The notes under the pieces: model-generated
Database searches by the model: none
What the model was told of the DNA's origin: nothing
What the model saw: the letters and a program-made list of their open reading frames with translations, nothing else
Made by a program: the position numbers and the translations under genes
Shown: positions 1,937 to 47,229 of the stretch, piece after piece
Layout: each line of letters begins with the position of its first letter
How positions within the stretch are numbered: the stretch's first letter is position 1
Virus record (IMG/VR): IMGVR_UViG_3300045988_138358
DNA: 64,000 nt
DNA from: a virus
Taxonomy: Duplodnaviria; Heunggongvirae; Uroviricota; Caudoviricetes
Strand: one strand, 5' to 3'

Positions 1937-2030
1937 ACGAACATAGCCCCTTCATAAGCAATGAACCAAAGGAAAGTATGCTCAGTTTGTGATTTCCGTT
2001 GTTCTTCCCCCAAATGCGGGGGAAGAATTA

Positions 2031-8499: not shown

Positions 8500-9321
8500 T
8501 TAATAATGGTTAGCCATCCATTCAGATCTAATTGATGGGATAAACTCTCTATTGAGAAAGGGGACGTACAGTGTGGTTGTCACATCTGCACCCTCCTTAG
8601 CGTTTTTGCAATGTTGCGGAGGCAGGATCAGTCGGCTTGTGCCTCTCTCAATAGACATTTTCAGGCCGTGGCGTAGGTCTTTTTGCATAAGCTGTATGCG
8701 AGCCACAAGCGGAGTAAATTCGGTTTCAAGCGCCATGCTTTCAATGATGTCAAAGCGTCGGTTAGCGGCCTGCGTGAAGTCCTCCGGATCGTCTTCAAGC
8801 GCCGTGCATAAAGCGAGTTCAGCAATTCGCATCCGTGCCACGCCAGCACTGTATTCGGGGCTTTTCATATCAGTAAGTGACGCTCGCATTCGTTCAAGGA
8901 GTTCCGCGCCTTTCCCGGTTAATGGTTTAAGTATCCAGTCAGTTGGTACTCCATTTACTGGTACGTTGGTTTTCACGTAAGGAGGTACAGTGAGTATTTC
9001 TACTGTTTGGGCCAGGTCGCTCAGGTTAATATCTGCATGATGCGTATTACCGCAGTGACTGCACTCATAGGAGTAGGTCATTACTGCATCGGGGCGCGAA
9101 TTAACAAATATCCACCAAAGAGCAGTTCTGCGATCCTGAACTGTCCAGTTAGCACTGTCGTTAATTTCACCATCCTGCATAGAGTTAAGGTACTCTGTAG
9201 TAGTAGCCTCATCTTCTGCCGGGTTCAGGTCAGAATATTTCAGCGCATCCTTCACGGTAGGGGCGTGGAACTGAATTTCTGTCTCAGGACGGGAAGGCAA
9301 TGGGAATTTTGGAATGTTCAA
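8500..9321 (-). CDS. hypothetical protein with Cys/His cluster (YSYECSHCGNTHH)
   Basis: ORF track 273 aa; sits between the replicon and the tape-measure-like gene. Confidence 0.35.
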   Translation of the reverse strand: MNIPKFPLPSRPETEIQFHAPTVKDALKYSDLNPAEDEATTTEYLNSMQDGEINDSANWTVQDRRTALWWIFVNSRPDAVMTYSYECSHCGNTHHADINLSDLAQTVEILTVPPYVKTNVPVNGVPTDWILKPLTGKGAELLERMRASLTDMKSPEYSAGVARMRIAELALCTALEDDPEDFTQAANRRFDIIESMALETEFTPLVARIQLMQKDLRHGLKMSIERGTSRLILPPQHCKNAKEGADVTTTLYVPFLNREFIPSIRSEWMANHY

Positions 9322-9426
9322 TTATTCCTCCGAAAAGCAGGTATCTGTTCATTTTCCAGAGGATAGGGAGTGTGTGATTTGCGATGGGGACTGAATGAAG
9401 ATCTTTGCCGGTCGAGAAGCGATTAT

Positions 9427-9445
9427 TGAGGGTGATTTTTACACC
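9427..9445. repeat. iteron-like sequence, inverted orientation, upstream of the origin
   Basis: tgagggtgatttttacacc is the reverse complement of the iteron core. Confidence 0.45.
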
Positions 9446-9463
9446 TTAAGTGACGCTACTCAC

Positions 9464-9472
9464 ATATCCACA
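9464..9472. promoter_or_regulatory. DnaA box-like sequence (ATATCCACA)
   Basis: One mismatch to the TTATCCACA consensus; followed at 9473-9530 by an AT-rich stretch with CCTTTTT repeats, a plausible unwinding element. Confidence 0.45.
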
Positions 9473-9567
9473 GAGTATTTTTATAAACCTTTTTCCATTT
9501 TTAATCCTTTTTAGATCCTTTTTAGGCGTCGCTGGAGCCAGTAGTGGCGCGGGCTGTAGAGGAGGCT

Positions 9568-9686
9568 GGTGTAAGATTTGCCCTCAATTAAATACGATCG
9601 GTGTAAGATTTGCCCTCAAAAGGTGTAAGATTTGCCCTCAAAAGGTGTAGTAATTGCCCTCAAAGTGATGTAAAAATTGCCCTCAC
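9568..9686 (+). repeat. iteron array upstream of repA: five ~19-bp iterons (GGTGTAAGATTTGCCCTCA and variants), the last four on a 22-bp period
   Basis: Copies at 9568, 9600, 9622, 9644 and ~9667 seen directly. Confidence 0.85.
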
Positions 9687-9709
9687 CATTTGAAGGATCA
9701 CACAGGGTT

Positions 9710-10465
9710 ATGAACAGAGCGGAATTAACAGCAAAAGCCGTCAGCCTGATTGAGTCAGCGACACCTATTAGTCGTAGTTTGGCACAAGCCAATGAGATCA
9801 CGGAGGCTGCTTATCACCTGACTCGCGACCAAAAGCGACTGTTGTTTATTGTGGTGGGAAGACTTCGCTATGCTTCTAAGGATGGCGTTCTTGGTTCAGG
9901 TGCCTGTGAGTTGACGGTCAACGAATATGCAGAGATGTATAATTTGCCCTCTGCTGAAGCCAGCAAGGATATTCGTAAGGCCATTTCAGGGCTTAGCGAG
10001 AAGAAAGTTACGATATATAACCCTGATGAATCGACCGAATCAGAAGACAGTTATGAGTCTTATCCCTGGATGATTAAGGATGCCTATTCACCACGGCGCG
10101 GGACTTACATTATTCATCTTAATCCATATCTCATGCCGTTTTTTACTCTGCTTGATAAGAGATTCACAAGGCTGAATTTTACCGAAGTATCTCGCCTTAC
10201 AAATCCTTATTCTATGCGGCTTTATGAGTCCTTATGCCAGTACAGGAAGGATGATGGAAGCGGCTTTGCCATACTTGGCGTCGAATGGATGCGGGAGCGT
10301 TATGGGTTACCAAAAAGCTATCAGCGGTATGCCGAATTTAAGAGAAGTTTTTTAACGAAGGCTGTAGCAGAGATTGAAAAAAATACAAAAATGAAAATAG
10401 TCTTCTCAGAGGTGACGGAAGGCGGCAAAGTTACCAGGATAAAATTTACCTATCAGCAGTCTTAA
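9710..10465 (+). CDS. repA: iteron-binding replication initiator RepA (Rep_3-like)
   Basis: ORF track 9677-10465 begins at a TTG; the ATG at 9710 (MNRAELTAK..) is the likelier start. Flanked on both sides by iterons; sequence has the feel of RepA/RepE-family initiators. Confidence 0.75.
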   Translation: MNRAELTAKAVSLIESATPISRSLAQANEITEAAYHLTRDQKRLLFIVVGRLRYASKDGVLGSGACELTVNEYAEMYNLPSAEASKDIRKAISGLSEKKVTIYNPDESTESEDSYESYPWMIKDAYSPRRGTYIIHLNPYLMPFFTLLDKRFTRLNFTEVSRLTNPYSMRLYESLCQYRKDDGSGFAILGVEWMRERYGLPKSYQRYAEFKRSFLTKAVAEIEKNTKMKIVFSEVTEGGKVTRIKFTYQQS

Positions 10466-10794
10466 GGGCAATTTTTACACCCCTCTCAAGGTGTAGAATT
10501 TGCCCTTAACGATCGGCAATTGAGGGCAATTTTTACATCTTAATTGCATGTATCTTGTTATTAGCAAGTTGTGTTTTTATATAACGTATTGATATGTAAG
10601 GACTATGTAAAAATCGCCCTCAACCAATATCGTGCGTATCGTGCATTCTTATTGCGCTTTTTTATTATCATTCACTGTGTTAACTGATTGATATTATTGA
10701 AATGTGTAAAGAATGCCTTCATTACAGATGAATTGATGATGTAAAAAATGCCCTCAAAATTGCGCTACCTTCCCTACCCGCTATCGTTGAGGGC
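10465..10794. repeat. downstream iteron cluster in both orientations (copy-control-like locus)
   Basis: Iteron-like sites at ~10465-10481 (inverted), 10490-10508, 10521-10539 (inverted), 10604-10622, 10701-10721, 10738-10756 and a partial at 10786-10794. Confidence 0.7.
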
Positions 10795-10846
10795 GTGGGT
10801 GCTGACGGGAAATGAGCAACCCTCCAGCACACATAATTAAAGCTAT

Positions 10847-11554
10847 TCAGAATTTGATCACTCCACTCACAGCCCCCTTTAACGCACTTGTAGCCATGCC
10901 AGCGGCACCGTTGACCAAAGCAGAAACACCTGAGCCTGCGGATGTGTATTTCTGGAAAGTGATTGGGTATGACAAGAACTCTGACACCTGATCACGTGAG
11001 CGTGTGATTTCCCCAAGTTGCGTAGGAAATACGCGCATTTCTTCTTCCAGTTCTTTTCCGCCGTCCTGAGTCACCCGGTAGACACGGATTTTCATCAGAT
11101 ATTCAGGAGGAAGGTTTATTGTTCCATCAGGATTTGTTACACGAGAACGACGCTCTTTGAACCAGTCCATGATCTTGCCATCTTCGGTATCCCTCACGGT
11201 CATAGTGACCGGTCCGGCGCTAACATAGGTTGGCTTGCTGAATTCTACGCTGCCGATCACCTTGCTTTCTGTCTCAATGTTTCCACTGCTGTAGGTGATA
11301 TCCTTCACGAACATATCGAAGCCGTTCAGGCCATCCACTTCAACGGTCCACTGCCACCCCTGGGCGTAACGGATACGCATAGCGGCAGCAACAATATTTT
11401 TCCCGTAGGCAATATCGCTACTGTAATTCCCGCTTACCCCGCCGCCTGATATGGCTTTATCAAGAATGTCGCTAATGAGGTTGCTGGTGAATGATTTCGT
11501 GTTAAATGACAATGCGGTGGTCAACGTTCTACCAACGCTGCTGAAAATACTCAC
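10847..11554 (-). CDS. hypothetical virion protein
   Basis: ORF track 235 aa in the tail gene run. Confidence 0.35.
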   Translation of the reverse strand: MSIFSSVGRTLTTALSFNTKSFTSNLISDILDKAISGGGVSGNYSSDIAYGKNIVAAAMRIRYAQGWQWTVEVDGLNGFDMFVKDITYSSGNIETESKVIGSVEFSKPTYVSAGPVTMTVRDTEDGKIMDWFKERRSRVTNPDGTINLPPEYLMKIRVYRVTQDGGKELEEEMRVFPTQLGEITRSRDQVSEFLSYPITFQKYTSAGSGVSALVNGAAGMATSALKGAVSGVIKF

Positions 11555-17944: not shown

Positions 17945-18056
17945 GGTTAAGCCCTAAATTCGGGCGCGGCGTGAAGGTTCTTTTGACGGGCTAACAATAC
18001 CTACTTTGTGATTTAGTCAATAGGTTTAGTAAAATAAAATCTATTAACACGCATGT

Positions 18057-20868: not shown

Positions 20869-21020
20869 TTCTATCCAAGTGCCCGGCAGGCGATTAAAGA
20901 TATTCTCAAAACAACCTCAATTATGACTCTTATTTATCTCTAATTATGTGGATTTTCGATGCCTCCTCTTTTAAAATCATGATTTGATTCTCAAATGTGT
21001 CTCAGAAGTGGAGCAAGAAG

Positions 21021-21977
21021 ATGCGCATTTTTATCGACGATGGTTCAACAAATATCAAAATGCTGTGGGAACACGACGGGGAAACTCGCACGCACATCAG
21101 CCCTAACAGCTTTAAGCGCGGATGGTCAGCAACATTTGGTGCTGGCAAGCCATTTAACTATGTCATTGACGACGAAAAGTATTCGTATGATTTGATCTCG
21201 CCAGATGTTCTGCCGACGAATAACGTGGAATGGCAATACAGCCCGCTTAACGTCCTGGCTGTTCACCACGCCCTGCTGACAAGTGGCATTGAGCCGCAGG
21301 AAGTAGAAATTGTGGTTACGCTGCCACTGGCGGAGTTTTACGACGACGACGCGCAATACAATCTCGATAACATCGAGCGCAAGAAAGCCAGCCTTATGCG
21401 CCCCGTCACGCTGAATAAAGGCAATGTATTCACGATTAAGAAAGTTACGGTACGCCCGGAGTCTATTCCGGCAGGAATTGGCCTGTGCGACAATCTGACC
21501 CCTGCCCACTCTGTTCTTATCGTCGATTTGGGTGGAACTACCCTTGATGTTTCAATGGTCGCCGGGCAAATGACGGCAGTTTCCCGTGTTTTTGGCGATT
21601 CGAATCTTGGCGTCTCTCTGGTTACCAGGGAAGTAAGGCAAGCACTTGCCAGAGCCAATACCGAAACGTCAAATTACAATGTCGATCAGCTCATTATTAA
21701 CCGCCACGATGAAGATTATCTGAACGACAATATCAATGACCCATCAGCTATTGGTGATGTGAAAAAGGCCATTGCTGCAAGTATTGACCGTCTGCGTACC
21801 CGCGTTCTTGATGTGATTGGCGATTTTAAAGGATATACGCATGTCATGGTGATCGGTGGCGGCGCACCGCTGGTGGCTGATGCAATTCGCGAGCAAGTTA
21901 ATATTCGCGATGACCGTTTCTTCGTGGCGGATGACCCGCAACTTGCTCTTGTTCATGGCCTGAAAGCAATCGGTTAA
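21021..21977 (+). CDS. parM: actin-like partition ATPase ParM/StbA
   Basis: ORF track 20997-21977 starts at GTG; ATG at 21021 has GGAG upstream. N-terminus MRIFIDDGSTNIK..ISPNSFKR closely resembles R1 ParM as I recall it. Confidence 0.75.
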   Translation: MRIFIDDGSTNIKMLWEHDGETRTHISPNSFKRGWSATFGAGKPFNYVIDDEKYSYDLISPDVLPTNNVEWQYSPLNVLAVHHALLTSGIEPQEVEIVVTLPLAEFYDDDAQYNLDNIERKKASLMRPVTLNKGNVFTIKKVTVRPESIPAGIGLCDNLTPAHSVLIVDLGGTTLDVSMVAGQMTAVSRVFGDSNLGVSLVTREVRQALARANTETSNYNVDQLIINRHDEDYLNDNINDPSAIGDVKKAIAASIDRLRTRVLDVIGDFKGYTHVMVIGGGAPLVADAIREQVNIRDDRFFVADDPQLALVHGLKAIG

Positions 21978-21983
21978 CGAGGT

Positions 21984-22328
21984 ATGTCCATGTCTCAGGA
22001 ACGTAAGAAAGTGATGATTTATCTTCGCCCAGGGGCTTATGCCAATGAAAAGGCGGCGAGCGAGAAGATAAAAAAACATAGCGATATGGCAAGAACTGCA
22101 TTGTTGGCAGGGCTTGCGCTGGGAGAAGTCGATAGCAGGCTTCCTGGATTACTGGCTTCCCTGCTGACCGAAGACAATAACCCGGAGCAGATCCGAAAAA
22201 TGCTGGCATCCTTCCTGGAATTACCTGCTGCTGTTGAGGAGCACCCTGCCGCCATTGAGCCAGCGAAGGAGCAAGTTGTTGCCAAAAGCGTGTCGGCGCG
22301 TAATCTTGCTGATTCTCTACCTGATTGA
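21984..22328 (+). CDS. parR: partition adaptor ParR-like
   Basis: ORF track 114 aa, immediately downstream of parM. Confidence 0.55.
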   Translation: MSMSQERKKVMIYLRPGAYANEKAASEKIKKHSDMARTALLAGLALGEVDSRLPGLLASLLTEDNNPEQIRKMLASFLELPAAVEEHPAAIEPAKEQVVAKSVSARNLADSLPD

Positions 22329-22347
22329 TGGTCAAAACTCTATTTTA

Positions 22348-22372
22348 AGGCTGCAAATTGCAGCCTTTTTTG
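22348..22372 (+). terminator. intrinsic terminator after parR
   Basis: Hairpin AGGCTGCA..TGCAGCCT followed by a T-run. Confidence 0.6.
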
Positions 22373-22575
22373 TTCCTTTTTGGTGTTAAAATGGCATCAA
22401 AGCGACACCAAATGGGCGTCGTTAATGTACTGGTGCATACTTGGTGCTAATTTAGTGCTATTCAGGCGCAAAACGTGTACCAGTATCCATCGGATTTGAT
22501 GTTATACTTCCGGCATTAAGAATGGTGCTATTGCTGTACCGTTGATGTGTAAAAGTGGTGCCGTTTTAGTGTAAA
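22372..22575. repeat. dispersed GGTG(C/T)TA and GTACCAGT motifs upstream of parA
   Basis: About eight copies seen directly; candidate centromere/operator for the ParA-RHH pair. Confidence 0.45.
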
Positions 22576-22600
22576 AATAGAGCCAAAATAAAGCCGAGGT

Positions 22601-23248
22601 ATGGACATGATTATCCTGGTAGCAAGTCAAAAGGGAGGCTGTGGCAAGTCAACCACCAGCGTCAATATTTGTGCCGAGCTGGCCCGAAAAAACAAAGATG
22701 TCGTCTTGATTGATGCTGATAAGCAGGGAACGGCAGCTCGATGGGCGTCAGACCGTAATTCGTCCGAAGTGACACCAGTTATTCATTGCGTCCAGAAGTT
22801 TGGAAATATTCGAGAAACTCTGCTCGATCTTAACAATCGATATGAATACGTGGTTGTTGATACCGCAGGTCGTGATAGTAAAGAGATGCGCACAGGTATA
22901 ACGGCGGCGGATATTCTATTGGTTCCATTCAGGCCGTCTCAGCCAGATTTGGACACGCTGGCACACTTTGTTGAGGTGTTTGAAGAGGCTTTGGATCTGA
23001 TGCCTAATCCCAATATTAAGGCGTGCGCAGTCTTAACTATGGCCCCGTCAAATCCGGTTGTGAATGAAGCAAATGAGGCCAAAGAGTATCTGGCAGAATA
23101 TCCGCAACTGAAATTGCTGAAAACCATTATTCGCGATCGCAAGGTTTACCGCGACTGCATGGCTGAAGGAAAGGGTGTTGTTGAGATGGATAACGGTAAG
23201 GCGAAAGGTGAAATTCAGATGTTAGTTAAGGAGTTGCTAAGTGATTAA
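22601..23248 (+). CDS. parA: small ParA-family partition ATPase
   Basis: ORF track 215 aa; deviant Walker A KGGCGKST; ATG and SD confirmed. Confidence 0.75.
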   Translation: MDMIILVASQKGGCGKSTTSVNICAELARKNKDVVLIDADKQGTAARWASDRNSSEVTPVIHCVQKFGNIRETLLDLNNRYEYVVVDTAGRDSKEMRTGITAADILLVPFRPSQPDLDTLAHFVEVFEEALDLMPNPNIKACAVLTMAPSNPVVNEANEAKEYLAEYPQLKLLKTIIRDRKVYRDCMAEGKGVVEMDNGKAKGEIQMLVKELLSD

Positions 23249-23525
23249 ACGTCGAGAACCAGCTAAAGCGCCTAAGGCTACTGATCCGGAACTTGAGCGA
23301 AGAATTGAAGAGTTCGCCAGCAAAGCGGATTTAATCCCGGATGAAATTACAACGGGGAAGGTGCTTGATAAAGATGCGCCGCGCGACTTTAAATCCATAC
23401 GCGTGAGCTTTAATGAATATGAGTACGGGGTGCTCGATGCGTTAAGCAAAAAGCTTAACCGCAGCAAATTGAACCTGATTCGACATGCCATCCTCATGCT
23501 TGCTGAGTCAGAGGATGCTAAATGA
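23241..23525 (+). CDS. RHH DNA-binding partner (ParG-like)
   Basis: ORF track 94 aa; overlaps the parA stop. Confidence 0.45.
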   Translation: MIKRREPAKAPKATDPELERRIEEFASKADLIPDEITTGKVLDKDAPRDFKSIRVSFNEYEYGVLDALSKKLNRSKLNLIRHAILMLAESEDAK

Positions 23526-33143: not shown

Positions 33144-33797
33144 TCAAAGTATCACGGTATCTTCATCAACTTCTTTCCCAGTCAGTGTCTTTGACTGGGA
33201 GGTGCCTGCTTTAACTTTTTCATGCCCAATAATGGACAGGAACGAAGCGAGTATGCCTGTTTTTTGCTCTTTCTCGACTGTACCGGTCATCTGCTCTACG
33301 TAATCCGCACTGGCTACATTGTGGTATACGGTCGCGTAGCAACACAGGATCATCAAAATATGCTCCGGCCTGATATCCTGCCAGTTCACCCGGTAGACTT
33401 CTTCTCCGTTACCGTTGTATTCGGTGTCAACGATGGAGTCAGGGATTTCGAAAGCACCTTTGTTATTTTGCGGCAGGGATAATAGCTTCTGGAGTTTTAA
33501 CTCTCTGTATCTTTCCATCCCGACGATGATTGCTGCTCTGCCATCGGCATGACGGGTCTTGAGAGTCACCTGGCTTGCTCCGGTGCCAGCGGAGATCGTT
33601 GGCGTAATTTCGTCTACCAGTACCTTAAATTTGCTTTTCCGCAGGGCTGCTATAGCTGGAGGAATTTTTTGCTTTTGCTCCAATGCTGACGCGGGAAGGG
33701 GTTTTACTTCGTTAATAATGAGAGCACCGTCTTTCAGTATTGCAGTGAGCATTTGAGGCTTGCTGGTGGTCAGGCTGAATATTGCGATCTTTTCCAT
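33144..33797 (-). CDS. hypothetical protein
   Basis: ORF track 33144-33839 starts at GTG inside a terminator hairpin; ATG at 33797 with SD GGAGGAAGG is the likelier start. Confidence 0.4.
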   Translation of the reverse strand: MEKIAIFSLTTSKPQMLTAILKDGALIINEVKPLPASALEQKQKIPPAIAALRKSKFKVLVDEITPTISAGTGASQVTLKTRHADGRAAIIVGMERYRELKLQKLLSLPQNNKGAFEIPDSIVDTEYNGNGEEVYRVNWQDIRPEHILMILCCYATVYHNVASADYVEQMTGTVEKEQKTGILASFLSIIGHEKVKAGTSQSKTLTGKEVDEDTVIL

Positions 33798-33824
33798 TGT
33801 CCTTCCTCCACGGATGACGGATAC

Positions 33825-33849
33825 AAAAAAAGGCCGCACATGGCGGCCT
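33825..33849 (-). terminator. leader terminator/attenuator-like hairpin just upstream of the RBS of the 33797 gene
   Basis: Minus strand AGGCCGC-loop-GCGGCCT followed by six or seven U. Confidence 0.5.
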
Positions 33850-34065
33850 GCTTTGGCGTTATGACTCCCTACCGCGCTTCGGCTGAAAGTTAATCGTCAA
33901 AAGAACCTTCAACGGGAGCCGTTAGCGCGATGGATTATGTGCAGTTTGTGATTTCCAAAATAGTGTCAACCACTTTTGGTGGATTTTATTTTTTAACCGA
34001 AATTTGGCCTAAATCATGTTTATGTAGTTAATTGTTTTTATAACATAAAACTTCATTTTGTTTGC

Positions 34066-45395: not shown

Positions 45396-46150
45396 CAAGA
45401 ATCACTAAAGAGCGTATTTCAGATATTATTTCCCGTATCGAAATGTATGGTCACGGTGCTGGATATACGGCAGATGAAGTATTGGCACTTGCCCAAATGG
45501 CTTTGGCGGCTTGCAAAGATGATAAAAAAATGAAGCTTATCGACTTGTTAGTGAAGGAGCTGCCTAAGTGCGGCGGGTGGCCTGATGGTATGATCGATTG
45601 TCGCCTGCTCAGTGCCAATTTAATGGCGCCATGCGCGACTTTTGCTTTTGGCTCAGACCACAAAAAAGACACGTTCTTTGGGCGCAATTTTTGTTGTGAG
45701 ATTGAGCTTCCAATTGGTGACCTTGATAGCGATGAATACCTGTCAGTTGTCACTCGCGAACAATACGAATCAGCTCTCATAGCGTCGCAGAAAGTCGAGT
45801 TCAATGGTGATGAACTTGAAAGTAAGACTTACAGGTTGGATTTTGGGCAATGGCTGGAACAGCAACGCGGGAAAATCGATGTGGACTGTGGTTGTGTGTC
45901 CACTGAAACATTCATGCACTGGCTGCGGGTAGCTTACGAGGCTGGCAACCATCCGGATTTTCCGGATAGTTCCCAACAATCGCCCAAGAAAAGCGTAAAA
46001 ACCACTCTGGAAAGAGGCTATCTTGAGGCCGCATTAAAGATTAAGCCTGGCCATACGCTAGGCGTCATTGATGCCATGTTGGTTCATGAAATGGCGAAGG
46101 CTTTATTGCCGCTGGTGGCTGATAAAATTCCGAATAAAGCCGATATCTGA
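45374..46150 (+). CDS. hypothetical protein
   Basis: ORF track 258 aa. Confidence 0.3.
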   Translation: MQGNKTMTRITKERISDIISRIEMYGHGAGYTADEVLALAQMALAACKDDKKMKLIDLLVKELPKCGGWPDGMIDCRLLSANLMAPCATFAFGSDHKKDTFFGRNFCCEIELPIGDLDSDEYLSVVTREQYESALIASQKVEFNGDELESKTYRLDFGQWLEQQRGKIDVDCGCVSTETFMHWLRVAYEAGNHPDFPDSSQQSPKKSVKTTLERGYLEAALKIKPGHTLGVIDAMLVHEMAKALLPLVADKIPNKADI

Positions 46151-46189
46151 TCACCATGCTAAAATCCCCTCAATTCACAGAGGGGATTT

Positions 46190-46462
46190 TTGTATATGTT
46201 GCATAGAGTTTTATGGAAAAGCGTTATTGTCGGCGCGATACTGGCTATATCTGGGTGTGCAATGGTGCAATACAACGACGGTGAAAAGGTAAGCATACAG
46301 TCAGATGGTTGGTATGGCCTGGATAGCCTGCAAAAAACCGCAGATAAAGCCTGTCAGCAATATGGGAAGTCTAAAGCAGTATATCAGCATAGCGCGAACG
46401 CTAACCCTCATCTAGCGCCCGGTTCTGGTGTTCAGAATACCATCTGGAAATGTGAGCCTTAA
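46190..46462 (+). CDS. predicted lipoprotein
   Basis: ORF track 90 aa; lipobox ISGC. Confidence 0.4.
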
Positions 46463-46464
46463 AT

Positions 46465-46716
46465 ATGAGCGACTGGAATATTGCAGCTAAAAGTCAGGAA
46501 GAACGGGATAAGGTTAACGTTGATCTGGCTGCCAGCGGTGTGGCGTACAAAGAGCGATTGAACATACCTGTCATAGCTGAACAGGTAGCCCGCGAGCAAC
46601 CAGAGAATCTGCGCACCTATTTCATGGAACGGCTACGGCACTACCGGCAGTTAAGCCTCCAGTTGCCAAAAGGGAGCGATCCGGTGTATCAGAACGAGGA
46701 TGCACCAAAAAAATAG
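46465..46716 (+). CDS. hypothetical protein
   Basis: ORF track 83 aa. Confidence 0.3.
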
Positions 46717-46801
46717 CGGCAAGATGGGGGAGAAATGTGATTAGCCCCCAGCGTGGCGCGCCTACAAACCCAGCTTTCACAAACTATGCCTTTTCAATGT
46801 A

Positions 46802-46821
46802 TACTGTATGAATAAACAGTA
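46802..46821 (+). promoter_or_regulatory. LexA box (TACTGTATGAATAAACAGTA)
   Basis: CTGT-N8-ACAG palindrome ending 19 nt upstream of the humD ATG. Confidence 0.75.
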
Positions 46822-46839
46822 TCATTAAGGTAAAACGCT

Positions 46840-47229
46840 ATGGGCTTCCCTTCTCCTGCGGCGGATTATGCAGAGAGCCGCATTTCTCTTGATCAGCAAC
46901 TAATCAGACATCCTTCCGCGACCTACTTCATGCGGGCGGCAGACAGCCATCACCGTGAGGGAATATTGCAAGGTGCTTTGCTGGTGGTTGATTCCTCACT
47001 TACTCCGGTTGATGGTTCACTGCTTATATGCGCTATGGAGGGTGAATATCGCATAAAGAGATACAGGAAGTATCCGCGCCAGCACCTGGAGGATTTAAGC
47101 ACCGGGAAGAAAGAGGCGTTACCAGTAGATGACGATGGATACACGGGCAGTAATGCTGTTTTTGGTGTGATCACTCATGTCATCAATGATGCCCGAAGTG
47201 GGGAGTTTGATTATAGACCTGTGATTTAA
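46840..47229 (+). CDS. humD: HumD-like, pre-truncated UmuD' homolog
   Basis: ORF track 129 aa; begins MGFPSPAADY, i.e. at the position of the UmuD self-cleavage site as I recall it. Confidence 0.65.
   Translation: MGFPSPAADYAESRISLDQQLIRHPSATYFMRAADSHHREGILQGALLVVDSSLTPVDGSLLICAMEGEYRIKRYRKYPRQHLEDLSTGKKEALPVDDDGYTGSNAVFGVITHVINDARSGEFDYRPVI

Follow-up and report, generated by a model that had tools for sequence, protein, structure and literature searches.

A gene transcribed rightwards and accompanied by short repeats interrupts a run of leftward virion genes in a phage sequence of 64,000 nt (hereafter the window), and the question raised by this locus is whether it constitutes a plasmid replicon and, if so, to which type it belongs. 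The initial annotation, made from the sequence, described it as an iteron origin with a DnaA box, an AT-rich region, five phased iterons, repA and a downstream copy-control cluster of mixed-orientation iterons, lying between the stop codon of one minus-strand gene (10847) and the start of the next (9321). All these elements were found at, or a few bases from, the coordinates given there, and the flanking genes were identified as homologues of tub (encoding the tail tube) and pmgB (Table 1).

Table 1. Features of the replication module and its flanks, in window coordinates
Feature	Position	Strand	Remarks
pmgB homologue, left flank	8500-9321	-	D6 orf41, "similar to P1 gene pmgB"
Candidate late promoter of the pmgB-sit operon, AAATCACACA-N5-TATCCT	9360-9380	-	Just left of the replicon
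Inverted iteron upstream of the origin, TGAGGGTGATTTTTACACC	9427-9445	-	Pattern match, 3 mismatches
DnaA box 1, CTACTCACA	9456-9464	+	Degenerate; 7/9 positions versus TTATNCACA
DnaA box 2, ATATCCACA	9464-9472	+	8/9 consensus positions
AT-rich region, T-rich strand	9473-9524	+	Presumed DNA-unwinding element; CCTTTTT-type repeats; GATC at 9514-9517
GC-rich spacer	9525-9567		GC 66%; terminal AGAGGAG
Origin iterons 1 to 5	9568-9586, 9600-9618, 9622-9640, 9644-9662, 9667-9685	+	Direct 19-bp repeats; consensus GGTGTAAGATTTGCCCTCA
Candidate extended -10 of the repA promoter, TGTAAAAAT	9669-9677	+	Inside iteron 5; sequence reading only
Shine-Dalgarno of repA, AAGGA	9693-9697		
repA	9710-10465	+	RepE-type Rep_3 initiator, 251 aa, WH1 and WH2 (Pfam)
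Iteron-like site inside repA, GATGTATAATTTGCCCTCT	9934-9952	+	Pattern match, 2 mismatches; status uncertain
Downstream iterons, six	10463-10756		Mixed orientation; presumed incC-like copy-control/incompatibility locus
Downstream iteron 1	10463-10481	-	Overlaps the repA stop codon
Downstream iteron 2	10490-10508	+	
Downstream iteron 3	10521-10539	-	
Downstream iteron 4	10604-10622	+	
Downstream iteron 5	10704-10722	+	Degenerate; outside the pattern matches; conserved in variants
Downstream iteron 6	10738-10756	+	End of the cluster
Half-site, TTGAGGGC	10787-10794	-	Probably not functional
tub homologue, right flank	10847-11554	-	D6 orf43, "similar to P1 gene tub"

Identity and distribution of the element

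The window was 99.5% identical at the DNA level to Escherichia phage D6, the whole module included, and the D6 counterpart (NC_050154, 45453-46974) also lies between pmgB and tub homologues. The repA product was 100% identical to that of D6 orf42, annotated in the D6 record as "replication initiation protein", a putative plasmid initiator. The module is the replicon of phage D6 or of a D6-like plasmid prophage, with nothing substantive to set it apart from the orf42 region of D6. In the D6 GenBank record only coding sequences are annotated, and the origin, DnaA boxes and iterons are not. D6-like plasmid prophages correspond to subgroup P1-g2 and to MOB-suite rep_cluster_1704; iterons associated with the pYU39_89 replicon had already been noted (PMC6799933), and 14 persistent genes of the D6 subgroup separate replication from partition (PMC7969092). 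The replicon has therefore been annotated and described before, and its novelty is low; the detail added by the sequence comparisons below is the 50% identity of the initiator to RepE, the collinearity with F ori2, and the unrelatedness to the P1 (IncY) and p0111 initiators.

In order to establish where the module resides, 5,426 complete Escherichia coli genomes were surveyed. All 101 copies of the module were on plasmids, and D6-like phage-plasmids were present in 88 of the genomes (about 1.6%). The module was also carried by 111 PLSDB plasmids, nearly all of 88-98 kb, with Salmonella and Shigella as further hosts of D6-like phage-plasmids, and a scan of IMG/VR returned near-identical D6-like contigs only. 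A 36.5-kb record, NZ_CP027382, was considered as a natural mini-replicon and rejected, being a linear, incomplete assembly fragment and uninformative. Chromosomal integration, against which the initial annotation had set its reading, was seen in none of the 101 copies. That the element is an integrating prophage whose repeats have nothing to do with replication has a practically negligible probability, since it is contradicted by this distribution, by the circular 91-kb D6 record, and by the presence of ParM/StbA-type and ParA-type partition genes. Structural, replication and partition genes thus share one extrachromosomal circle, according to the D6 annotation and the 101 plasmid copies, as expected of a phage-plasmid. 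The initial annotation was right in calling the element a phage-plasmid, but the position of the replicon inside the morphogenesis region, on which it had relied, is by itself no proof; the case for a plasmid lifestyle is made by a replicon that is intact and under selection, by the partition genes and by records that are all plasmids. Its description of the replicon as "complete" holds for the basic replicon but not for the partition genes, which lie about 10 kb away.

Iterons, origin and initiator gene

Iterons were searched over the 64-kb window using the 17-nt pattern TGTARNATTTGCCCTCA with up to three mismatches. Twelve matches were obtained, all within 9427-10756, versus 1.03 expected by chance, and none of 100 shuffled sequences reached that number. 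The five origin iterons start 32, 22, 22 and 23 bp apart, which places them on the same helical face and confirmed the phasing proposed initially. Phased direct repeats beside a rep gene, together with an AT-rich region and a DnaA box, are the arrangement found in Rep_3-type replicons. Conservation was assessed in six diverged variants, 81-96% identical overall, in which all five origin iterons were invariant. In pMIN14, a variant with 84% identity, the origin iterons plus the upstream inverted copy were identical at 114/114 positions; other upstream non-coding positions were 82% identical. The inverted copy was likewise unchanged in the six variants, and relative L016 has three inverted copies in its place. 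At the iteron-like site inside repA, the synonymous positions were the same in the six variants, bar one change that betters the match; the site was absent from L013, a relative whose Rep is 78% identical. Two other candidates in the region were discarded. The sequence GTGTGTGATTTGC at 9370-9382, considered as a half-iteron, is better explained by the candidate late promoter of the opposite strand, whose -22-like box it would form, and a 155-nt stretch (9824-9978) with zero differences from pMIN14, considered as a hidden element, varied in other variants and was attributed to a recombination mosaic. An Rfam search of 9200-11000 matched no RNA family.

Seven sites as good as ATATCCACA occur in the window, with about 15 expected, so that this DnaA box does not stand above chance by match score alone. 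Its support comes from its invariance in the six variants and from the box pair (9456-9472), which aligns with the corresponding pair in F ori2 and in relatives L013 and L019. The adjoining region is AT-rich, as initially described, with 20% GC (9475-9524 bin) and an AT skew of -0.45, and in its core the six variants differed at just 2 columns per 25 nt. The GC spacer that follows has an equivalent at this position in F and in relatives L013, L016 and L019, and is variable in sequence except for its AGAGGAG terminus.

Profile searches assigned the repA product to the Rep_3 family: Pfam Rep3_N (PF01051, WH1) matched at 2.9e-29 (102.7 bits; gathering cut-off 22.4), and Rep3_C (PF21205, WH2) at 9e-16 (58.3 bits; gathering cut-off 21.1). 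The RepE crystal structures (PDB 1rep/7uxy) were matched at E ~1e-73. The reading frame is intact, and its dN/dS of 0.02 at dS 0.46 points to strong purifying selection, which supports function. These values bear on the alternative that the module is a relic, or a mere incompatibility or exclusion determinant, the phage being maintained instead by its RepL lytic replicon or by an unrecognised origin. D6 does carry a repL homologue, outside the window. However, apart from the intact and selected reading frame, the binding sites are selectively conserved, orf42 is the sole plasmid-type initiator annotated in D6, and about 100 circular plasmid records contain the module; moreover, repL of P1 is annotated under a C1 repressor operator, OrepL, and would therefore be silent in lysogens. 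We regard this alternative as highly improbable, and the locus as a real and very likely functional plasmid replication module.

Since only 24 nt separate the last origin iteron from the ATG of repA, the repA promoter should overlap the iterons. A scan of the iteron region for consensus sigma-70 promoters found none, and the extended -10 listed in Table 1 is a candidate.

The downstream iterons were confirmed as a mixed-orientation cluster. Compared with pMIN14, identity in it was 90% at iteron positions and 51% in the spacers (p = 1e-13, Fisher test), and changes in the six variants were limited to the degenerate central positions. The initial annotation had placed its last element at 10794; in the HX138, pMIN14 and E. 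marmotae variants, unrelated sequence takes the place of the half-site there. The half-site is unlikely to be an iteron, and the cluster ends at 10756. L013 has seven downstream iterons in alternating orientation. A role of the cluster in copy control is presumed by analogy; against it, relatives L016 and L019 get by with one downstream iteron each.

Origins within a downstream iteron cluster, with the upstream iterons acting as operator, have been reported for some other iteron plasmids. Here, too, a functional or second origin might lie within 10463-10756, the five upstream iterons serving mainly as the repA operator: AT-rich segments of 24-30% GC (10550-10600 and 10650-10750) separate the downstream iterons, and the sequence alone cannot tell which cluster fires. 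Against such an arrangement, no DnaA box with one mismatch or fewer is present in the downstream cluster, nowhere does the module vary more than in the AT-rich spacers of this cluster (13-21 variable columns per 25 nt, versus 2 in the upstream core), L016 and L019 possess just one downstream iteron each, and it is the upstream region that aligns with F ori2, which has been defined experimentally (PMC13028717). A downstream origin thus appears very unlikely.

Relation to the F, P1 and p0111 replicons

The initiator and F RepE share 50% identity (E = 2e-86), and both have 251 aa and two winged-helix domains. F ori2, also called oriS, and the module show, in the same order, tandem DnaA boxes, a T-rich AT stretch, a GC spacer and 19-bp iterons; the AT stretches have TATTTTTATAA and TTTTTAGATC in common, and the iterons share their ATTGCCCTCA half. 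As with the downstream iterons here, F incC begins at the stop codon of its rep gene, repE. The whole succession of DnaA boxes, AT-rich region, iterons, rep and downstream iterons is therefore that of mini-F (IncFIA), even if DNA-level BLAST of the module versus F gave no match. Three intermediate relatives, with Rep identities of 78%, 71% and 57%, have origins that align element by element, as with F ori2. The F counterpart, a fragment of 1430 bp, is the replication element of the mini-F plasmid pFM1, which also carries R1 parB and bla, and incC reduces copy number in F (PMC13028717). Together, the RepE-type initiator and the ori2 collinearity support the initial reading of an iteron origin with rep and, by analogy, downstream copy-control iterons.

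Several differences from F were apparent. The origin has five iterons here versus four in F, and the downstream iterons point both ways; in F, each of the five downstream copies is inverted with respect to ori2. A segment of about 70 nt that in F holds the promoter and the inverted-repeat (dimer) operator TGTGACAATCTAAAAACTTGTCACA is missing. The distance from the last iteron to the ATG is about 20-24 nt in the window, L013 and L016, none of which has an operator segment; in L019 it comes to about 27 nt with the annotated start, or to about 18 nt with an ATG upstream of it. In F, RepE touches the GTG/GtCA half of the iteron through WH2 (PMC4980987), and this half reads GGTGTAAGA here versus TGTGACAAA in F. 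Divergence of this half and retention of the ATTGCCCTCA half match the lower identity to RepE of the C domain (41%) than of the N domain (53%). RepE R118 corresponds to D124 in the initiator. The NCBIfam RepE equivalog model NF010305 scored 280.6 bits, under its cut-off of 342, which makes the protein a homologue and not an equivalog, so that details of F control such as the dimer operator and chaperone dependence may not transfer. Unlike in F, the partition genes are not adjacent to the replicon, which is surrounded by phage tail genes. Compatibility with F is predicted.

The L013 contig has a different gene neighbourhood from D6 and is phage-like, with a ddrB-ParB domain and an SNF2 helicase; a link to P1 or D6 is unconfirmed. 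As the C-terminal fragment of its large helicase had no significant similarity to D6 DarB, we call it "phage-like" and not D6-like.

In the sister phage P1, the same biological role is played by oriR(incC)-repA-incA, whose annotation follows the same plan, with DnaA boxes, a GATC-containing AT-rich region, five iterons at the origin, rep, and an array of iterons downstream for copy control. The P1 repA promoter is annotated within the origin iterons, as an iteron-embedded promoter is inferred to be here. The P1 replicon, however, lies beside parAB-parS, between gene 23 and upfA, and not between pmgB and tub. Homology to P1 RepA, suggested in the D6 record by the remark "similar to P1 gene repA?", was rejected at the sequence level (BLASTP E = 0.057; P1 absent from the tblastn matches). 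Typing of D6 as p0111 was also rejected, the pO111_2 Rep (AP010962 / NC_013370) giving a BLASTP E of 0.027 over 64 residues. pO111_2 too has a plasmid-prophage replicon in a P1-like element; its Rep is annotated as "RepB family", its p0111-type replicon occupies the P1 replicon site, and its pmgB and tub are adjacent.

The D6 replicon is thus neither IncY nor p0111 but of a third type, with F RepE as a relative, and marker screens for IncY and p0111 would miss D6-type elements. Phage-plasmids of the P1 community have been implicated in the spread of resistance genes (PMC11165635, PMC9603915). Predictions of compatibility with P1-type phage-plasmids and F plasmids depend on the D6 replicon type. 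Replicon-module swapping is already well documented as a phenomenon; the module is a clear case of it among related phages, with a mini-F-like cassette at a site other than that of P1.

Proposed mechanism and placement among the late genes

On the observed repeats, protein family, F homology, purifying selection and exclusive plasmid location, we consider it highly probable that the module is a basic theta-type, iteron-controlled replicon, a diverged relative of mini-F ori2-repE-incC, through which the D6-like phage persists as a plasmid prophage of low copy number. By homology with F, initiator monomers would bind the five phased iterons and host DnaA the tandem boxes; initiator and DnaA, probably with HU, would then melt the AT stretch, where the host helicase would be loaded. 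Because the last iteron is so close to the start codon and an F-type operator is lacking, the repA promoter is expected to overlap iterons 4-5, and initiator bound there may repress it, as in P1. The downstream iterons, and perhaps the inverted copy at 9427-9445, would titrate the initiator and, through looping or handcuffing, pair with the iterons of the origin; copy number and incompatibility would be fixed in this way, as homology with F incC suggests.

The pmgB-tub gap is 14 bp in P1 and pO111_2; since the two genes are that close in P1, the module splits a late operon. It is antisense to the tail genes that form this single late operon in P1, and a separate candidate late promoter serves pmgB beyond it. 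No terminator was detectable from the tub stop codon to the module: the fold after tub is on a par with that of shuffled sequence (z = 0.08), and terminator-like matches in the region were weak, including a pair 3' of repA (10632-10657) that is not conserved in pMIN14. Late transcription from tub might therefore read through the iterons, antisense repA and the origin. That this placement is functional, switching off plasmid-mode initiation at lytic commitment, seems to us unlikely. A more modest possibility is that the D6-type clade combines an F-type initiator with P1-style control, with autoregulation through an iteron-embedded promoter and the dimer operator dispensed with.

The P1-type late-promoter box AAGTKACTT-N4-TANNAT was not enriched (3 matches versus 2.8 expected) and was set aside. 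The motif of the candidate late promoter has four perfect copies in the 64 kb, versus 0.16 expected, all on the minus strand and upstream of minus-strand ORFs, three of which are homologues of P1 late genes; the copy at 9360-9380 was invariant in the six variants.

An F-like replicon module confined to plasmids

The 1,525-bp interval between two minus-strand genes (9322-10846) is 99.5% identical to positions 45453-46974 of Escherichia phage D6 (NC_050154), where it holds orf42, flanked by orf41 (similar to P1 pmgB) and orf43 (similar to P1 tub). The replicon is already annotated in that record: orf42 is the sole plasmid-type initiator annotated in D6, and a repL homologue is situated outside the window. 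Iterons of the D6-type replicon have also been mentioned for plasmid pYU39_89 (PMC6799933), and the kinship to F ori2/RepE and the absent operator described below are refinements of a known element. The interval was found in 111 PLSDB plasmids, 85 of them at at least 99% identity; nearly all are non-mobilizable, 88-98 kb in size and typed rep_cluster_1704, and their hosts are E. coli, Salmonella and Shigella. The module was present in 88 of 5,426 complete E. coli genomes, and all 101 places where it occurs are on plasmids, none on chromosomes. This location lends support to the initial annotation's view of the element as a phage-plasmid and contradicts the rival view of an integrated prophage.

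The orf42 product (Rep, 251 aa) contains both Rep_3 winged-helix domains (Rep3_N, 2.9e-29; Rep3_C, 9e-16), and the profile search thus placed the gene, repA, as an iteron-replicon initiator of the Rep_3 family. Among solved structures, those closest to it are of F-plasmid RepE (1rep, 2z9o and 7uxy; E ~1e-73), and it shares 50% identity with RepE across 228 residues. Since it scores 280.6 bits against the 342-bit cut-off of the NCBIfam RepE equivalog model, Rep is a RepE homologue and not an equivalog. Residue D124 of Rep aligns to R118 of RepE; the R118P change in RepE gives RepE54, which is monomeric and high-copy. No similarity was detectable between Rep and P1 RepA, or between Rep and the p0111 reference initiator of pO111_2, which ruled out a p0111 type. 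The replicon types described for P1-like phage-plasmids are IncY and p0111 (PMC11165635, PMC9603915), and the D6 replicon is a third type beside them.

Iterons, selection and variation

Searching the 64 kb with the iteron pattern TGTARNATTTGCCCTCA and up to three mismatches gave 12 matches, all within 9427-10756, against a chance expectation of 1.03 (0 of 100 shuffles reached 12). Both the five phased iterons and the mixed-orientation downstream cluster recognised by the initial annotation were recovered, and the start spacings place the five origin iterons on one helix face. The end of the replicon had been set at 10794 by TTGAGGGC at 10787-10794; this sequence is not conserved and is probably not a site, the last pattern match ending at 10756. 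The predicted AT-rich region was present and is followed by a GC-rich spacer. The DnaA box was borne out in part: it is invariant in the compared variants, but the window has no excess of matches of its grade (7 observed versus ~15 expected), so that its support is comparative and not statistical.

Features of the replicon and its surroundings
Feature	Position	Strand or orientation	Remarks
Inverted iteron	9427-9445	inverted	upstream of origin iterons
DnaA box	9464-9472		ATATCCACA; 8/9 positions match
AT-rich region	9473-9524		20% GC; then 66% GC spacer
Five origin iterons	9568-9685	same orientation	start spacings 32, 22, 22, 23 bp
Six downstream iterons		- + - + + +	first overlaps repA stop codon
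Fifth downstream iteron	10704-10722		degenerate; recognised by conservation
Candidate late promoter	1975-1995	-	upstream of R/S tail-fibre genes, at place of P1 LPs
Candidate late promoter	9360-9380	-	upstream of pmgB, just left of replicon
Candidate late promoter	17994-18014	-	upstream of gene 23, at place of P1 LP23
Candidate late promoter	33934-33954	-	upstream of unassigned ORF 33144-33839
ParM/StbA	20997-21977		first partition module
StbB-like gene	21984-22328		partner of ParM/StbA
Small ParA ATPase	22601-23248		second partition module
94-aa ORF	23241-23525		partner of small ParA

The window was compared with natural variants whose modules are 81-96% identical to its own (pMIN14, E. marmotae, PSS-10, HX138 and SX48). 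In repA, dN/dS was 0.02 at a dS of 0.46 (57 differences synonymous, 5 non-synonymous). None of the six sequences shows any change in DnaA box 2, the inverted iteron upstream or the five origin iterons. Variable columns number 2 per 25 nt in the AT-rich core, as against 13-21 in the downstream spacers. Identity to pMIN14 is 90% at the positions of downstream iterons versus 51% in the intervening spacers (Fisher p = 1e-13), and the iterons vary only at degenerate central positions. These selection data contradict the possibility that the module is a relic or non-functional.

Two segments within repA were also observed. Positions 9824-9978 show no difference from pMIN14 in 155 nt, with 62 differences scattered across the rest of the gene; other variants differ there, so that the segment looks like a recombination mosaic inside the replicon and not a constrained element. 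An iteron-like site at 9934-9952 (GATGTATAATTTGCCCTCT) includes a perfect TATAAT. Six diverged variants agree with the window at its synonymous positions except for one change, which betters the iteron match, and it is absent from the relative whose Rep is 78% identical. Rep may bind functionally at this internal site, or the resemblance may be coincidental.

Comparison with F ori2 and proposed control of replication

In the F replicon (NC_002483), two DnaA boxes are followed by a T-rich AT stretch and a GC-rich spacer, then by four iterons (TGTGACAAATTGCCCT..), a promoter that carries an inverted-repeat operator (TGTGACAATCTAAAAACTTGTCACA), and repE; the five iterons of incC, all inverted, start directly after the repE stop codon. 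Three intermediate relatives were retrieved: L013 (Rep 78% identical; 87-kb phage-like contig, ERZ15184914 NODE_74), L016 (71%; 104-kb metagenome contig) and L019 (57%; Nissabacter plasmid CP028040). All share the order of DnaA box(es), AT-rich region, GC spacer with an AGAGGAG end, five or six iterons and the rep gene, at whose stop codon lies an inverted iteron. In the five-way alignment the elements of the window face those of F, with TATTTTTATAA and TTTTTAGATC as common strings. F and window iterons have the ATTGCCCTCA half in common; they diverge in the TGTGACA half, which RepE WH2 contacts (reviewed in PMC4980987). The identity of Rep to RepE, 53% in the N domain versus 41% in the C domain, is consistent with iteron divergence in that half.

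The ~70-nt promoter/operator segment of F is missing from the window's clade, and only 24 nt separate the last origin iteron from the ATG, so that the repA promoter must overlap the iterons, as is annotated for P1 PrepA. A candidate extended -10 is TGTAAAAAT at 9669-9677, within iteron 5; a consensus promoter scan returned nothing there or elsewhere in the iteron region.

By analogy with the F system (PMC13028717, PMC4980987), Rep monomers would bind the five origin iterons and DnaA its boxes, the T-rich AT stretch would melt, and the host helicase would then be loaded; in F, RepE binds the T-rich strand of the DUE. Autorepression would be exerted by Rep on iterons 4-5 over the promoter, and not by dimers at a separate operator. 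Deletion of F incC raises copy number and its excess blocks ori2 plasmids (PMC13028717); the downstream cluster may similarly titrate Rep and pair with the origin. An origin within this cluster is unlikely, as it contains no DnaA box, the AT-rich spacers in it are hypervariable, and only one downstream iteron is present in two of the relatives.

Downstream of rep, L013 (4754-5300) carries seven iterons whose orientation alternates strictly. They lie within a ~200-bp repeated unit that includes a GC-rich palindrome, and the palindromic units flanking them share CCCTCCAGCACACA with window positions 10757-10846. In L019 (5588-6472 and 4900-5560), Rep adjoins a second gene, Rep3_N-like and 294 aa in length, with different direct repeats of its own ahead of it (AAAGGTTAACACTT(C/T)CATG and CATGGAACTACTAACCTTTTG units), which indicates a two-replicon plasmid.

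Genomic placement and candidate late promoters

In P1 and pO111_2 the pmgB-tub gap is 14 bp; in P1 both genes lie downstream of late promoter LPsit, and the replicon is located between gene 23 and upfA, adjoining parAB. The module of D6, at a different site, is therefore not an orthologue of that of P1, and it splits the equivalent of a late operon. The motif AAATCACAMA-N5-YATNNT has four perfect copies in the window, all on the minus strand, versus 0.16 expected, the pattern having been built from three of these sites so that the fourth alone is independent. No copies with one mismatch were found in the window, nor was the P1 late-promoter box AAGTKACTT enriched there. The motif probably corresponds, in D6, to the late promoter of P1, and the copy next to the replicon would restore late pmgB-sit expression after the operon split. 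No convincing terminator was found on the minus strand in the stretch from the tub stop codon to the replicon (10757-10846; fold z-score 0.08, no T-run), and late transcripts may thus read into the replicon antisense to repA.

The L013 replicon does not lie between tail genes; its neighbours are a HigB/HTH toxin-antitoxin pair and a 2,234-aa SNF2 helicase, a different neighbourhood that is consistent with movement of the replicon cassette. Two partition modules are located ~10 kb from the replicon of the window (20997-23525), in agreement with PMC7969092, where replication and partition in the D6 subgroup are described as lying 14 persistent genes apart.
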